IMG/VR virus record: IMGVR_UViG_2751185956_000002
Span: 1-12,399 of that record
DNA length: 12,399 bases
Source: a virus
Lineage: Duplodnaviria > Heunggongvirae > Uroviricota > Caudoviricetes
Strand: one strand, 5' to 3'
This document shows, in pieces, positions 2,594 through 8,202 of the stretch. Both the position numbers and the translations under genes were made by a program. The notes below the pieces were generated by a model that had not been told where the DNA came from, searched no databases, and saw nothing but the letters and a program-made list of their open reading frames with translations. Position 1 is the stretch's first letter, and each line of letters opens with the position of its first letter.

Positions 2594-3034
2594 TTGAAGT
2601 TTAACATTAGAATATCTAATAGTTTTCTACATGGGGAAAGCAACACCCCTTTCGCTGTAGACGGACCTTTCCTTACTGATGATGAAATAAAAATCATACA
2701 AAGTTTTTTAGAGGATGTTGCCAATGGAAGGGCGCTTGTTGGAAAAAACAAGCCCTCGTGGGTTGATGATAACCATGATAAAATTCCCGGCTCAGACAAT
2801 TATGAGCAAGAGAATTATTGGCATTATCATTGTGGGCCAACATGGTATCCAAACACATTTAAGAATTATACCATTAACTTAAATTTCAACCCTGGCGGAA
2901 GGCATTCTAATGAATGCATTCATTATGCAAAAAATGATAATGAAATTGTCATTGTTGGATTTTCAAGAGAACACATACCTTTCCTTTCATCAGATGGAAA
3001 CAACAATCCGCTTTTTAATGATGAAGAAGAATAG
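2594..3034 (+). CDS. AT-rich moron protein, 146 aa if started at TTG 2594 (193 aa if ATG 2453 is used); His/Cys-rich C-terminal motif, function unknown
   Basis: The frame is open from 2453 to TAG 3032-3034, but the only in-frame ATG (2453) has no RBS and lies inside the 55-aa ORF in another frame. TTG 2594 is preceded by AGGAG (2583-2587) with a 6-nt spacer. Composition drops sharply to AT-rich from ~2590 to 3030. Contains WHYHCGPTWYPNTFKNYTINLNFNPGGRHSNECIHY. Confidence 0.5.
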   Translation: MKFNIRISNSFLHGESNTPFAVDGPFLTDDEIKIIQSFLEDVANGRALVGKNKPSWVDDNHDKIPGSDNYEQENYWHYHCGPTWYPNTFKNYTINLNFNPGGRHSNECIHYAKNDNEIVIVGFSREHIPFLSSDGNNNPLFNDEEE

Positions 3035-3056
3035 CCCGCGCTGCGGGCTTTTTTGT
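3033..3056 (+). terminator. Strong rho-independent terminator
   Basis: Perfect 7-bp GC-rich stem AGCCCGC / GCGGGCT with loop GCT, followed by TTTTTT, starting at the stop codon of the AT-rich gene. Confidence 0.75.
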
Positions 3057-3085
3057 GGACGAAACAAAAGTCAGTGCTACACTCA

Positions 3086-3113
3086 TTGACGCCACATTGA
3101 GGTGGCTTATAGA
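3086..3113 (+). promoter_or_regulatory. sigma70-like promoter candidate (-35 TTGACG 3086-3091, 16-bp spacer, -10 TATAGA 3108-3113)
   Basis: Hexamers read directly. It would give a very short leader before ATG 3127, so assignment to the downstream small ORF is tentative. Confidence 0.3.
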
Positions 3114-3126
3114 TGGAAATTTCACA

Positions 3127-3288
3127 ATGAAAAAAGCATTTGCTGCACTGTTCGTTTTGTTGTCTCTGGTAGCTTCAACTCAGGCCTTTGCCGGTCGTTG
3201 TCAGCACGACAGCGATACTGCCGCTGACGGCTCCCGCTGCGGTGGGCGTTCTGCGGATTCCCGCCCGGGTGGCGGTGGCATTCGTTAA
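3127..3288 (+). CDS. Small exported peptide precursor, 53 aa (signal peptide plus 31-aa Gly/Arg/Asp-rich mature peptide with two Cys)
   Basis: ATG 3127; stop TAA 3286-3288. The N-terminus MKKAFAALFVLLSLVASTQAFA is a textbook Sec signal peptide (basic n-region, hydrophobic core, AFA cleavage motif). Predicted mature peptide GRCQHDSDTAADGSRCGGRSADSRPGGGGIR. RBS is weak; the ORF-track GTG start at 3055 abuts the upstream terminator and is unlikely. Confidence 0.4.
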   Translation: MKKAFAALFVLLSLVASTQAFAGRCQHDSDTAADGSRCGGRSADSRPGGGGIR

Positions 3289-3311
3289 AAACAAGGCCGC
3301 GAAAGCGGCCT
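3283..3311 (-). terminator. Rho-independent terminator for the minus-strand operon (after the lipoprotein gene)
   Basis: Stem AGGCCGC / GCGGCCT with loop GAAA (3294-3311). On the minus strand it is followed by TGTTTTTAA (reverse complement of 3285-3293), 9 nt after the lipoprotein stop codon. Confidence 0.5.
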
Positions 3312-3319
3312 GTGACATG

Positions 3320-3700
3320 TCACGCAACGCAATTATTACCGCGCCATGTAACATTTTTAATAATCTTATCAGCACCAAACTCAACGTAAACAGAGCAACT
3401 GAAATGGAGTGTATAACCGCCATCAGTTGTTGCGTATGTGTTTGAATATATAGTATTACCAATTAGATTAGACGTAGTATTATACGTTGTGGTTTGTGGT
3501 ACGTTATAACTACCAGAGCTTGAGTAAACATACACTCTGTTTCCATCTGGAGATGTAAGCTCTCCCTGAGGATACCCCCACTGCTGAACCATTGCGTCTA
3601 TACTCTGCCCGCGCCACGTAAGCATATTTCTTTCAAACTGTGCAGCTGACTGGCATCCAACGAGAAGCATAAATCCAAAAATCAAAAATACTTTTCTCAT
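3320..3700 (-). CDS. Predicted outer-membrane lipoprotein, 126 aa (moron; candidate superinfection-exclusion or receptor-masking factor)
   Basis: ATG 3700-3698 with AGGGG 5 nt upstream; the ORF-track start (GTG 3736) is less likely. N-terminus MRKVFLIFGFMLLVGCQSAAQ gives a lipoprotein signal with lipobox LVGC and Gln at +2 (not Asp, so outer-membrane sorting is expected). AT-rich, unlike the neighbouring virion genes. Stop TGA 3322-3320. Confidence 0.7.
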   Translation of the reverse strand: MRKVFLIFGFMLLVGCQSAAQFERNMLTWRGQSIDAMVQQWGYPQGELTSPDGNRVYVYSSSGSYNVPQTTTYNTTSNLIGNTIYSNTYATTDGGYTLHFSCSVYVEFGADKIIKNVTWRGNNCVA

Positions 3701-3785
3701 AATTACCCCTATCATGGAAAAACAGCACCAATCCACAAATTAACTAGTTATTTTATTATTCTTCCGAACAATACAATTCCGAATA

Positions 3786-3908
3786 CTACAAAGCCGAACC
3801 ATGCCGCTGCACGCAACAGAGATTCCAATTGAAACCCATTTTTATCAAAATGTATGAATAGCATAAAAACGCTGCACATATTAGTACAATAAAAGTTATT
3901 TGAACCAT
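3786..3908 (-). CDS. Small hydrophobic membrane peptide, 40 aa (not in ORF track)
   Basis: ATG 3908-3906 preceded by AAGGAG (3919-3914) with a 5-nt spacer, directly after the stop of the 824-aa gene. Translation MVQITFIVLICAAFLCYSYILIKMGFNWNLCCVQRHGSAL: an N-terminal ~21-residue hydrophobic helix and a short Cys-rich tail. Stop TAG 3788-3786. Confidence 0.4.
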   Translation of the reverse strand: MVQITFIVLICAAFLCYSYILIKMGFNWNLCCVQRHGSAL

Positions 3909-3919
3909 CATATCTCCTT

Positions 3920-6394
3920 TTATTGCGGAGTGACATCCTGTGGTCGCCACCAGTATGTCTGGTTAAACTCTTTCTTCGAACGTTGCTCCATTTTACGCAA
4001 ATAGCCTGGTGAAAAATACTCCTGCATCTGGTTAAAGATCATGTGATCGAGAGCCGCCTTCAAGTACCAGAGATTCGCACCAGGCATCAAACCTTTCCCC
4101 AGCTTCACCAGATCACCACCAGTCTGCTCACTCTTCCCTTCCACAGCATTTAACGGTATGCCCTGAGCAATCTTCACTACGTCATCAACCAGACCAGCTA
4201 CCGGGCCAAGCATCGACGCCAGCGCGCCGCTTCCGTACCTAGTGTGATCTGACAATAAAAAGTCACCGTAAAGGCCAAGACCACCACCTTTCAGTAGAGC
4301 ACCAAGCCAGAATTTTGCGGCATCTTCTCCTGTCATCTCTCGAGGATTACGACCAGACGCAAGGTCGTTAAGTTGCTGCGACAAAGCGCCAAGAATGGTC
4401 GTACTGGCAATAAACGTCGCAATATATGCCGCACGCCCACCAGCAGACGGCATACCCATAGCGCGTGACCAGTGACGCATAACAACCGAGATAGGGAACG
4501 ATTTAAACAGGAAAACACTTCTCGTTAATTCACCTTTCCATGTTCCACGCTGAATACCAGAACCGGTTATCAGTTGCTCACGTGCTCCCGGTGTAATAAC
4601 AGCCATATCAACTTCTTCAGTTACGGCACCGAGCAGTTTACGCATTGCCTCAAATTTCACGCGTTCAGGCTCACCAAGATGTTTAACTGCTGAATCAGGG
4701 ATACGCATAATGCTTTCCGGTGTCAGCATCGTATTATTACCGTTCCCCCAGTCCTCCTGTTTCGCCAGCTTCCATACGCTCCAGTCTGTGTCAGTAATCC
4801 CTTTGCTTTTCAGGATACGAAAATCAGAGTCATCGAGGCTACGAAGGTCTGGTGTCCGTGACACTACTTCTCCCAGGCTTCCCATCATGGTTACGCCATA
4901 GGCGCGCTTGTGCGCATCTGACCATGCTGTAAGCCCACTGGCACGCATTACCGCCGTTGCCGCCCAACGAGACACTGACGGCCCCATATTATCCATCGCC
5001 CAGCGGTTAACGCTGCCAAGTAGAGATTCCATCGCCAGACCAGCGCGGCGCGCCCGCGCAAGTTCTGTACGGTTCGTTGGGTCCATAGCTTCAAGCTGGT
5101 TGCGGAATAACTGGTTCATTGGAAGGTTGGTAACCTTCGCAGACAGATACATGGTTCCAAGATCAGAGAACGATGACAGCAACGCGGATCCGAGTCTGCT
5201 GGCAACCAGCCAGTTGCGGATATTGTCAGACCATCGCGCGATGTGCGGATTCGCTACAGGCTGTGTCTTTCCGGAAATAAAGTTGTACAGATTCTCTGTG
5301 TTGTTCGCCAGCCGCTCGACTTTACCGGTTTTACTCGGGTTAGCTGTTGCCGTTTCTGCCTTCACCTGATCAAGAAGAGAGCGGAAAACATGATCGGGGT
5401 TTGGGCCATATGTTTCCACCAGTGCAATATCTTTACTGATACCTTCCAGGTGACAGACCATGATTTCCCATAGAGAGCGATCGCCATAAAGTTGCTGATA
5501 TTGCAGATAGGAATCTGCATCTTTGAAATGTATCTGTCGTGATGCATTACCACGGTTAGCACGTGCGCCGGAAATTCGCATTCCGGTATCAGTAAGCTTA
5601 TTCAGCCCACCAGTAGCGATCGTGTTATAAGCCTCTCCAAGAAATGAAGACAACTCGGCATCGTTCATCAGTTGTCCATCGGCTCGGATATAATATTTGC
5701 GATCCAGCTTACCTATAACATCGCTAACCCACTTATCCTTTGATACTGCCCCAACCTTTTCCATAGAATGATGTTGAGGGATCCCCCAGTTTTCGAGATA
5801 GCCAATGTCCCCACCAGCATCATTAAACCGGCGGCGCAGCAGCTCTGTAACTTCTCTCCACGCCTTAGCACCGTTTCTTGCTTTAGCATTGCCAGTATTT
5901 TGCCCCCGCATTTCATATACCAGGTCACGTACGCCCGCTTCATCTTCAAACAGACCAAAAAAGCGAGGATCAACTGCTTCGAATGCCTCCTGCAATTGAC
6001 TCAATGCATAATCACGGGTGGCTTTTGTTCTGGATTCAACAGAGAGGAAATTAGATTTACCGTCTGCATTAAAAGCTATAGTACGGTTAAGAGCGCCAAG
6101 TTTCCCATCAGCCCCTTGATAGCTATTGATAAATTTATCCAATCTCTGACGCGCGGCTATAGTGAGAGCCACACGACGTTTATTTAATGCCGCTTCTCGC
6201 TGTAATTCTTCAGATGCCAATTGTGCTGCTCGATATAGCCGCTCTGATTCGGAAAGTTGTCGCCACGACATAGTGTCATCACGAGCAATGGAGCGCATAT
6301 TTCGATAAATGCGGTCTTCAATGTTCTGTATTTCTCGCGCCGTTAACATGCGCTGCGCCGCCTGCTGAACCGCTTGTATACATTCCTGTCTCAT
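3920..6394 (-). CDS. Large virion internal-core / DNA-ejection-type protein, 824 aa
   Basis: Uninterrupted ORF; ATG 6394-6392 with a GAGG-containing RBS; stop TAA 3922-3920. Third of three consecutive large proteins (837, 600, 824 aa) between small virion genes and the tailspike, the arrangement typical of podophage ejection/core proteins. Function is inferred from size, order and context only. Confidence 0.75.
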   Translation of the reverse strand: MRQECIQAVQQAAQRMLTAREIQNIEDRIYRNMRSIARDDTMSWRQLSESERLYRAAQLASEELQREAALNKRRVALTIAARQRLDKFINSYQGADGKLGALNRTIAFNADGKSNFLSVESRTKATRDYALSQLQEAFEAVDPRFFGLFEDEAGVRDLVYEMRGQNTGNAKARNGAKAWREVTELLRRRFNDAGGDIGYLENWGIPQHHSMEKVGAVSKDKWVSDVIGKLDRKYYIRADGQLMNDAELSSFLGEAYNTIATGGLNKLTDTGMRISGARANRGNASRQIHFKDADSYLQYQQLYGDRSLWEIMVCHLEGISKDIALVETYGPNPDHVFRSLLDQVKAETATANPSKTGKVERLANNTENLYNFISGKTQPVANPHIARWSDNIRNWLVASRLGSALLSSFSDLGTMYLSAKVTNLPMNQLFRNQLEAMDPTNRTELARARRAGLAMESLLGSVNRWAMDNMGPSVSRWAATAVMRASGLTAWSDAHKRAYGVTMMGSLGEVVSRTPDLRSLDDSDFRILKSKGITDTDWSVWKLAKQEDWGNGNNTMLTPESIMRIPDSAVKHLGEPERVKFEAMRKLLGAVTEEVDMAVITPGAREQLITGSGIQRGTWKGELTRSVFLFKSFPISVVMRHWSRAMGMPSAGGRAAYIATFIASTTILGALSQQLNDLASGRNPREMTGEDAAKFWLGALLKGGGLGLYGDFLLSDHTRYGSGALASMLGPVAGLVDDVVKIAQGIPLNAVEGKSEQTGGDLVKLGKGLMPGANLWYLKAALDHMIFNQMQEYFSPGYLRKMEQRSKKEFNQTYWWRPQDVTPQ

Positions 6395-6399
6395 TTAAT

Positions 6400-8202
6400 T
6401 TAACCTCTCAAGAAACACGCCACAGCGACATCAAACAGGCTGGAATCCTGTATTGCCTGCTCACTTTCCCTGTTCGCTTCATCCAGTGCTTCACGCGCAC
6501 TGCGCGATTGTGGATTACCATCATCATCCAGCACGGTGATTATCATGTCAGGTGATTCAAGCAGCGAGTCTTCAGCTATGCGCAAATCAATATCTCCTGC
6601 CTGATCTGACATCATTTTTTGTTCTGCCTGTTGCAATATTTTATCAGGCTCAAAAGGAGCTACTTCGTCTGGCGTCCTGACCTCTGCTGTTTTATAGAAT
6701 GAAACAGCCTGAGCATTAAGTTCACTTTCTGCCTGCTGTCTCCGAGCCAGTTCTGCTCGAGCTTCAAAAAACTGACCGCCAGGCTCATGCGGTGCCAACG
6801 CGTTACGAGAAAATTCCAGGCGTTCTTGTGCCTGCCGGATTCGTTGGTCAATATCGCGAAGTCTGGCCTGTTTATCTGATCGAGCACGAGATAAAGCCTT
6901 ACCGCTACCGGCTGGATCTTCTGCAAGAATTTGTGCGCGCTGTTCAGTGAGATTTTCAATAATTCGTTGGCTATTAGCGATTTCAGACTGGTAAACCTGT
7001 CTATCGCCACGCGGCAAAAGCTGCGCGGCCTGTTCTTCAAGCAACCGATTTTCTATAGCGCGCGCCGTTACTCCATCATCTACAGATGACAGAGCCTCAT
7101 TAACTGCCTGAGACAGCAGACTCTTGCGTCCAGGAATTTCACTGAAAGATGCAGACTCAACAATGCTGGCAACGTCTACAGGTCTCCCCTGGCTAACATC
7201 AGACATGGCTTTTCGCAGAGCCTGAATGTGCGAATTACGCGAAAGCACGTTGATCGGCACGCCGGGAGCAATATCAATTTCAGCATGATGAGCGGCATTC
7301 GCCGCCAGTGCAGCATCGATATCAACTGGTGAAAAATTTGGTGCGCTTGTAGACTCGCCGCGAGAGTTAATAAATCTGCCGACACCACCAAACGCCACCC
7401 CAAGAACAGCATCAATAGCAATTGCCTGTCGATCCAACACATCATACTGGTTAGCCATTTCGCTATAGCCACCATCACGAAGCGTTTTTGCAGTAAGCCC
7501 ACGCTGTGCCATACCGAACGCAATATTTGTACCTGCGGCATAGGCAATATCTGGCGTTGCACGTACTGCTGTTGCTGCGGCGCGTCGCACTGAACTTTCA
7601 CCCGTCCGCGCAAGCTGAGCCGCCACACCTTCCGCCAGCGCACCACCAGCACGTAACCCGAGGCTCATAGGGATCAGTGTTCCGGCACCAGCAGTAATAC
7701 CCTGCACTAATCCCGCTTCCTGCGCCGTCCTGAAATCAACACCCTGTGCTGTAAGCCGTTCAAACTCAGAAAAACCCTGTAGAGAAGTTACCGCCGCAGC
7801 ACCTCCGACCGGACCACCGAGCGTTGTACCGACAACAGCCTGCCCGCCCATATCGAACAACCCATAAAGGACCTGCCCGGCGGTTCCGGTTGTCGCGGCA
7901 TCAGGCGTCAGCCGCTTAACCTGCTGCTCTGCTAGTTTTCTCTGCTCAGCAATGTATGAAACTGAAGTGTCATTGATCGAGGTGTTTTCGTTAACAAACT
8001 GAGCAATCGGGGATACGATTTTATCCATCCCTGCCCATAGCAACTGATCTGGCTTTGCCACCAGCCCGGAGTACAAACCAGACAATGCCGCTCCTACAGC
8101 ATTGTCGAAAAAACCAACATCGCTGTTAAAGCCAGCTGGATTTGATGCTGCTTCGTCAAGCTGCTGATTCTGGTTTACTGGATTAAGGCCAAAGTAACTC
8201 AT
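6400..8202 (-). CDS. Virion internal / DNA-ejection-type protein, 600 aa (Gly/Ala-rich N-terminal half, coiled-coil-like charged C-terminal half)
   Basis: ATG 8202-8200 overlaps the stop of the upstream gene (ATGA). The N-terminal half is rich in Gly/Ala hydrophobic segments (e.g. GTTLGGPVGGAAAVTSLQG, GITAGAGTLIPMSLGLRAGGALAEGVAAQLA), suggestive of membrane insertion. The C-terminal half is Arg/Glu/Gln/Ala-rich with heptad-like character. Confidence 0.75.
   Translation of the reverse strand: MSYFGLNPVNQNQQLDEAASNPAGFNSDVGFFDNAVGAALSGLYSGLVAKPDQLLWAGMDKIVSPIAQFVNENTSINDTSVSYIAEQRKLAEQQVKRLTPDAATTGTAGQVLYGLFDMGGQAVVGTTLGGPVGGAAAVTSLQGFSEFERLTAQGVDFRTAQEAGLVQGITAGAGTLIPMSLGLRAGGALAEGVAAQLARTGESSVRRAAATAVRATPDIAYAAGTNIAFGMAQRGLTAKTLRDGGYSEMANQYDVLDRQAIAIDAVLGVAFGGVGRFINSRGESTSAPNFSPVDIDAALAANAAHHAEIDIAPGVPINVLSRNSHIQALRKAMSDVSQGRPVDVASIVESASFSEIPGRKSLLSQAVNEALSSVDDGVTARAIENRLLEEQAAQLLPRGDRQVYQSEIANSQRIIENLTEQRAQILAEDPAGSGKALSRARSDKQARLRDIDQRIRQAQERLEFSRNALAPHEPGGQFFEARAELARRQQAESELNAQAVSFYKTAEVRTPDEVAPFEPDKILQQAEQKMMSDQAGDIDLRIAEDSLLESPDMIITVLDDDGNPQSRSAREALDEANRESEQAIQDSSLFDVAVACFLRG

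Follow-up and report, generated by a model that had tools for sequence, protein, structure and literature searches.

A probable frameshifted allele of a two-helix small membrane protein gene behind the ejection genes of an epsilon15-like Escherichia coli prophage

The window, the whole 12,399-nt stretch of viral DNA that was analysed, very likely carries, directly after its last ejection-protein gene, a frameshifted allele of an uncharacterised gene for a two-helix small membrane protein. The 5′ stump of this gene is, on balance, probably functionless, and the two statements combined are likely. The locus is most likely a decaying accessory gene and not a new toxin. In the window allele a single base is missing between the sequences for helix 1 and the conserved loop. 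Ribosomes from the strong binding site would make helix 1 and 21 missense residues, two tail Cys included, before reaching a stop, and the conserved loop and helix 2 are intact but lie in the -1 frame. The case carries a caution for annotation, as the tidy small ORF with a strong ribosome-binding site and a striking Cys tail appears to be the stump, and the frame that had been dismissed holds the conserved half.

Genomic context of the small gene

Bases 3000-6400 of the window have 98-99.7% DNA identity to Uetakevirus Escherichia phages (phiV10, vB_EcoP_ZX5, Phi05_1387 and others) and are also matched by prophages in 565 of 5426 complete E. coli genomes. Judged from these matches, the window is evidently part of an epsilon15/phiV10-like (Uetakevirus) E. 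coli prophage. Its three long minus-strand genes, encoding 837, 600 and 824 aa, correspond to internal virion/ejection proteins; phiV10 p20 is annotated as a ‘virion structural protein’ and phiV10 p19 is noted as similar to epsilon15 p16. The features that frame the small gene are the following.

3920..6394, minus strand: 824-aa virion/ejection protein gene, immediately preceding the small gene; its homologs are phiV10 p20 and epsilon15 gp17
3914..3919, minus strand: Shine-Dalgarno sequence AAGGAG, from sequence reading, abutting the stop codon TAA (3922-3920) of the 824-aa gene
3320..3700, minus strand: 126-aa lipoprotein gene, the second gene of the cassette, with lipobox LLVGC; phrog_3716, a family without an assigned function
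3294..3311, minus strand: intrinsic terminator hairpin AGGCCGC-TTTC-GCGGCCT with a T run, closing the late/ejection operon and kept after all three cassette types

The small gene shares a transcription unit with the ejection genes and the lipoprotein gene, the first terminator being found only at 3311-3294. A scan upstream of the small gene gave no convincing promoter, only weak 9-of-12 matches. As the Shine-Dalgarno sequence abuts the ejection-gene stop, the small gene is probably expressed by read-through of the late operon with translational coupling. On the plus strand, positions 3127-3288 encode a 53-aa protein (WP_000708858.1, a ‘transmembrane anchored protein’ in a near-identical allele) that converges on the hairpin, which appears to serve as a bidirectional terminator.

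Reading frames after the ejection gene

The minus-strand junction reads TAA-AAGGAG-AT-ATG-ATG-GTT. The AAGGAG lies 5 nt from ATG 3908 and only 2 nt from the in-frame ATG 3911, and it is ATG 3911 that aligns with the start codon of the intact homologs in the DNA alignment. A natural variant (L074, L097) has ATA in place of ATG at 3908-3906; a start is then possible only at ATG 3911, with a 2-nt spacer. Two frames are of concern.

3786..3911, minus strand: ORF in frame A, 41 aa long if started at ATG 3911 and 40 aa if started at ATG 3908, with stop codon TAG at 3788-3786
3748..3849, minus strand: remnant in frame B that codes for the conserved loop plus helix 2 (FDKNGFQLESLLRAAAWFGFVVFGIVLFGRIIK, closed by TAA), matching P0001, P0002 and P0026, with the hydrophobic stretch present

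The 40-aa ORF described in an earlier note on this DNA is real. It runs on the minus strand from ATG 3908 to TAG 3786, directly after the last ejection gene and behind AAGGAG with the 5-nt spacer, and its product, read from ATG 3908-3906, is MVQITFIVLICAAFLCYSYILIKMGFNWNLCCVQRHGSAL. The single hydrophobic helix that the note described is likewise found by helix prediction at residues 1-24. The note had placed three of the four Cys in the tail, and this count needs correction: two are there (C31, C32) and two are in the helix (C11, C16). The stretch specific to the 40-aa product is ...KMGFNWNLCCVQR. Coding homology in frame A is limited to the first 19-20 codons (to TAC 3854-3852), which is helix 1, and the last 21 codons are out-of-frame read-through.

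The 62-aa ORF (3936-3748, minus strand) begins within the upstream 824-aa gene. It lacks a Shine-Dalgarno sequence, as the earlier note had stated, but it is not merely a wrong frame, since the conserved loop and second helix of the gene are encoded in it, as its C-terminal 33 residues. The broader claim, that annotation has missed a small membrane-protein gene with a good ribosome-binding site here, stands. Neither PGAP (APEC O1, XH992) nor the authors of ZX5 placed any annotation in the 220-nt gap after the ejection gene. Among 15 billion proteins there is no record of the 40-, 41- or 54-aa frame-A products; the 62-aa product (P0003) is recorded there on 117 contigs.

Intact homologs and the site of the break

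The second helix of a 57-aa protein that occupies the same slot in other E. coli prophages (type B, below), AICWFIFVVQGIVLV, resembled window frame B, AAAWFGFVVFGIVLF, and a search was therefore made with a conceptual fusion of frames A and B. This returned the intact single-ORF proteins P0001 (54 aa; MSHIIFIVIISGAFLCYSYAFDKKGFSLEPQARAAAWFGFVVFGLVLLGRLVGN) and P0002 (52 aa). The P0001 cluster, P0011-P0024 included, comprises 28 proteins of 53-54 aa found on hundreds of contigs, the hosts being mostly Klebsiella pneumoniae, K. variicola and K. oxytoca, with a few E. coli and Salmonella. P0026 (52 aa, 67% identical) came from an exhaustive HMMER search of representatives, which gave just six proteins at E ≤ 0.001; the family is narrow. 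The predicted proteins P0025 and P0027, from the representative search, join an ejection-protein C-terminus to a small two-helix protein, through either deletions or frame errors at the same junction in other genomes. A scan of one genome per species with P0001 gave no confirmed locus.

The intact homologs are proteins of 52-57 aa with two transmembrane helices, and their loop and helix 2 lie in the other frame of the window. They match frame A through AFLCYSY and frame B from FDKNGF...RAAAWFGFVVFG... on. Within residues 1-19 of frame A the FIV and AFLCYSY stretches are identical to P0001, and the conserved loop/helix-2 motif FDK.GF..E...RA.AWFGFVVFG.VL.GR is present in frame B (3849-3748). 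In the DNA alignment the window has TCATACA-TTTTGAT where the intact genes have TCCTATGCCTTCGAT, which places a 1-nt deletion at about 3851-3847.

3847..3851, minus strand: 1-nt deletion site, window TAC-ATTTT-GAT, intact genes TAT-GCCTTC-GAT (DNA alignment)

Where the family has an uninterrupted ORF of 52-57 codons, the window has a gene split between frames. The ejection-gene neighbourhood of the family is found in the window and in L087, L088 and L089, and in these three loci the homologs start 8-12 nt after an 824-aa ejection gene. In L113/L114 the homolog comes after an intervening 133-aa gene and not directly at the ejection gene. Nei-Gojobori counts between the window and the Klebsiella gene, taken by half and by frame, were as follows.

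5′ half, frame A: pN 0.16, pS 1.07, purifying selection
3′ half, frame B: pN 0.20, pS 0.78, purifying selection
3′ half, frame A (the tail of the 40-aa product): pN 0.34, pS 0.26, no purifying selection

The lack of purifying selection on the 3′ half in frame A indicates that the tail, ILIKMGFNWNLCCVQRHGSAL, should be read as out-of-frame translation past the break. The architecture of one helix with a Cys-rich tail, to which the earlier note had looked for its comparison with small membrane toxins and exclusion proteins, is then an outcome of the 1-nt deletion, the intact homologs being two-helix proteins of 52-57 aa.

Spread of the broken allele

The allele region is carried at ≥99.6% identity by 34 of the 5426 complete E. 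coli genomes, APEC O1 among them. Twenty-eight full-length copies differ from the window by at most one SNP, and all have the break. A scan of the break site with the pattern TGCTATTCATAC-N{0,6}-TTTGATAAAAATGGGTT gave 10 viral-contig and 7 metagenome matches, with the 2-nt gap of the broken form in 17/17. No intact version of the E. coli allele was found among the 17 scan matches, the 28 full-length copies or the 34 genomes. Polymorphism within the allele is too low for a test of ongoing selection. One ENA metagenome scaffold (L089 4001-4135; protein P0004) has a 26-nt deletion, with short flanking repeats, that joins the frame-A start to frame B. Its 44-aa product retains the conserved loop and helix 2 and has lost most of helix 1; the lipoprotein gene is still present.

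The deletion appears to be recent, because the downstream frame has not yet decayed and the carriers are near-identical. The gene would seem dispensable, because phage ZX5, which carries the allele, was deposited as a complete genome with a named E. coli host. The 40-aa product would be a leftover that is neutral or has no function. A dispensable pseudogene of recent origin and clonal spread is the most probable reading of the allele, the 5′ stump of which may still be translated into a 40/41-aa peptide. Several observations sit less easily with a pseudogene. The E. coli allele was found in its broken form alone; this is not what a young pseudogene usually shows, and it makes rescue or a newly acquired function conceivable. 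Both ATGs have been kept together with the strong AAGGAG, a slippery heptamer in the right frame follows closely on the break, and the downstream frame is open to the ancestral stop. The re-fusion in L089/P0004 could hint at selection for the second helix.

Cassette exchange in the slot

The comparison took in 80 IMG/VR loci (L007-L086) whose ejection proteins match that of the window at ≥98% identity over the C-terminal 144 aa. Three cassette types were found: type B (57 aa) in 42 loci, type C (46 aa) in 29 and type A, that of the window, in 9. The distance from the stop codon to the shared terminator, GGCCGCTTTCGCGGCC, is 501 nt for B, 170 nt for C and 609 nt for A. No co-variation was found between cassette type and ejection-protein C-terminus, all three types following C-termini at least 98% identical. 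The occurrence of three types between near-identical ejection C-termini and one terminator points to an exchangeable cassette in this slot, with which the ejection operon closes at its 3′ end. The limit of the exchange is a sharp recombination boundary exactly at the ejection-gene stop codon (window 3294-3922, L007-L086).

Every cassette opens with a gene for a small hydrophobic protein, the ribosome-binding site of which abuts the ejection-gene stop; in types B and C an SD-like GGA(A/T)G lies against the same stop codon. In type B, known from other E. coli prophages, the 57-aa two-helix ORF starts with GTG and precedes the gene of a 98-aa multi-pass protein. With 42 of the 80 IMG/VR loci this ORF is the commonest occupant of the slot. 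In the prophages of E. coli SEC470 and NRZ14408 (1251-1424 of both L004 and L006) the ORF has its GTG after GGAAG and is unannotated by PGAP. The type-B protein has 44% identity to the intact form (BLASTP E = 3e-10) and is judged on this similarity to be a genuine distant homolog of the intact Klebsiella form. Type C encodes a 46-aa protein with two hydrophobic helices and holds the same position in phiV10 and in the Salmonella phages SPN1S and 66FD. The terminator hairpin after the phiV10 cassette is annotated in the phiV10 record.

Relation to the lipoprotein gene and to known families

The lipoprotein is found at ≥99% identity in 34 E. coli genomes, a count equal to that of the small-ORF region, the two sets being compared by number only. 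The diverged copies tell more. In E. coli MB07152 (L094) a copy 75.6% identical stands directly after the ejection gene with no small ORF. A HicA toxin gene and a DUF1902 (HicB-like) gene lie just past this homolog, in the same accessory region (L094 1925-2383). Klebsiella phage ST11-OXA245phi3.2 (L095) has a lipoprotein homolog 78.6% identical with no same-strand small ORF ahead of it. On the opposite strand there (L095 1352-1471), the interval from the ejection-type structural gene to the lipoprotein homolog holds a 39-aa hydrophobic ORF, MKSKMITFFLRLTVLAVFILALNIVIYGIPRIFGMPWIN. No lipoprotein lies downstream of the intact small genes of Klebsiella (L087, L088), and the partner in type B is a different, 98-aa protein.

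In a distant podophage (L113/L114), whose ejection protein has 1131 aa, the cassette at 3487-4859 consists of a 133-aa protein, P0026, a 99-aa membrane protein and a 127-aa lipoprotein, the last with 53% identity to that of the window (E = 4.5e-43). Given this co-occurrence, the small gene and the lipoprotein have travelled together in two diverged lineages. The four-gene cassette of L113/L114 may be a fuller version of the module. Taken across these loci, the partnership of small gene and lipoprotein is not obligate, but some functional link between the two is possible.

No match was found in Pfam, PHROG, NCBIfam or PADLOC for the type-A proteins, and the lipoprotein matched only PHROGs without known function. 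Similarity to toxin families and an associated antisense or sRNA were likewise absent (Pfam, NCBIfam, PHROG, PADLOC; no Rfam match below E = 0.9), and the small gene has no similarity to SieA types A-C (Pfam, PADLOC). Searched against PDB sequences, the lipoprotein had a single isolated match, to a surface-layer protein (E 5e-10, residues 34-84), and nothing informative on function emerged.

The earlier note had proposed a co-transcribed module of the small gene with the lipoprotein, with the likeness of a small membrane toxin or exclusion protein. Co-transcription with the ejection genes and the lipoprotein holds, with no terminator before 3311-3294 and no convincing promoter. The module survives in part: each gene is found without the other, which disposes of an obligate pairing, but the two do co-occur in the distant phage L113/L114. 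The likeness gained no backing, there being no similarity to toxin, defence or exclusion families. The note had also reasoned that loss or disruption of the peptide frame in close homologs where the lipoprotein is retained would refute its proposal. Such loss is seen in L089, where the 26-nt deletion destroys the 40-aa frame and the lipoprotein is kept, and again in E. coli MB07152, where the lipoprotein homolog directly follows the ejection gene and there is no small ORF.

Alternative explanations

The break adjoins a T4 run, and a sequencing or assembly error hiding an intact 54-aa ORF was considered. The same sequence occurs in 34 complete E. coli genomes of many sources, in phage ZX5 and in 17 independent viral/metagenome contigs, and such an error has next to no probability; as the source of the break it is effectively refuted by the independent assemblies. 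Selection could instead act on the 40/41-aa single-pass peptide itself, as a neo-functional membrane peptide of toxin-like or exclusion type, possibly acting with the lipoprotein. The strong Shine-Dalgarno sequence, the start codon and the clear transmembrane helix would suit such a peptide, as would its co-transcription with the lipoprotein gene, the fixation of the broken form in all carriers and the joint presence of a two-helix homolog and a lipoprotein homolog in a distant phage. It is nevertheless unlikely. The tail frame is without coding conservation and the tail is missing from every homolog, L089 loses the frame and keeps the lipoprotein, L094 and L095 have the lipoprotein without the small gene, intact homologs are found where the lipoprotein is absent, and no toxin or defence family, antisense or sRNA family was matched.

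The remaining alternative concerns a -1 frameshift during translation. A heptamer past the break had been a candidate for the actual site of the frame change. It was rejected because the DNA alignment explains the change by simple loss of one nucleotide, no less than 10 nt further upstream, and programmed frameshifting is accordingly treated as an alternative only.

3831..3837, minus strand: G_GGT_TTC, an X_XXY_YYZ heptamer in frame A, 10 nt past the break, where a -1 slip enters frame B

The frame-A codons AUG-GGU-UUC form the heptamer G_GGU_UUC, and frame B is open to 3748. A programmed or opportunistic -1 frameshift here (3837-3831), or at A_AAA just upstream, would give the 40-aa peptide together with a 53-aa two-helix protein, the conceptual trans-frame product being MVQITFIVLICAAFLCYSYILIKMGFQLESLLRAAAWFGFVVFGIVLFGRIIK. 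The frame change required is exactly -1, the heptamer is canonical and in the right frame 10 nt past the break, frame B is fully open, a hairpin begins 4 nt downstream of the heptamer, and the broken form is the sole form of the allele found. In addition, among A-site tetramers in E. coli U_UU.C ranks second in its tendency to shift, a ranking obtained with a stimulator present (Sharma et al., PMC4066793). In the same study stimulator-free constructs reached just 2.1-10-fold over a background of ~0.055%, and G_GG.U_UU.C is not among its 18 under-represented motifs, which are listed above 0.10%, the highest basal rate there being >0.10% without a stimulator (PMC4066793). An in-frame heptamer also arises in ~10% of shuffles of the post-break stretch, the GGG-TTT simply descends from a Gly-Phe codon pair in the ancestral frame, the hairpin (-12.6 kcal/mol) is no stabler than shuffles (z = -1.1), and a rescued product would still miss the conserved xFDK loop residues. 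The carriers are near-identical at the heptamer site, with no variation bearing on its conservation. A frameshift of this kind is thus very unlikely, and rescue of the gene by it possible but improbable to the same degree. That slippage at G_GGU_UUC keeps the broken allele, through a fixed ratio of the 40-aa single-helix peptide to the 53-aa two-helix protein, is more doubtful again. If true, the ejection operon would end in a two-isoform small membrane system, which might affect DNA entry jointly with the lipoprotein.

Comparison with known systems

The closest known relatives of the window gene are ‘hypothetical proteins’ of Klebsiella, E. coli and Salmonella prophages (P0001/P0011, for example WP_302121623.1; P0026), with ~65-67% aa identity over both halves. 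These 52-54-aa two-helix proteins have helix 1 and the motif FL.YSY.F.KKGF..E....RA.AWFGFVVFG.VL.GR in common with the window, which differs in that, through the 1-nt deletion, its halves lie in different frames and are not joined in one ORF. The 46-aa ‘putative integral membrane protein’ phiV10 p21 / SPN1S_0020 (phrog_7892) has the same slot, the same layout of the Shine-Dalgarno sequence on the stop codon, the same terminator and two hydrophobic helices. It has no detectable sequence similarity to the window gene and is a positional analog only. With the ‘savior’ sites and the -1 frameshifting of IS elements and dnaX the window shares an in-frame X_XXY_YYZ heptamer and the U_UU.C A-site tetramer. 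It differs from these systems in that its downstream hairpin does not stand out from shuffles and that no SD-like stimulator was seen upstream at the usual distance.

On the P22 map, sieA lies just past the ejection-protein genes (gene 16) and before immI and the ant/tailspike region. The neighbours in the window follow the same layout, running from the ejection genes through the small membrane gene to the AntA/Bro-N genes. P22 SieA is an inner-membrane superinfection-exclusion protein of the prophage that blocks the ejection-protein conduit of related podophages (PMC10883804). It has 162-164 aa and three predicted transmembrane domains and is prophage-expressed, and sieA adjoins mnt (PMC10883804). 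The window gene differs from SieA in size, helix number and sequence, and no promoter was detected in the window, so the likeness is one of analogy and not of membership.

A small two-helix family, inconsistently annotated, is thereby defined in a recombination-prone slot after epsilon15-like ejection genes, where P22 has sieA. Judged by position only, the intact family most likely provides a late-operon/prophage inner-membrane accessory protein at the envelope. It might, for instance, interfere with the DNA-ejection conduits of incoming phages, in the way that P22 SieA does from its corresponding slot. The window copy is the least informative member of the family, and the intact Klebsiella and type-B versions are reasonable candidates for tests of exclusion.
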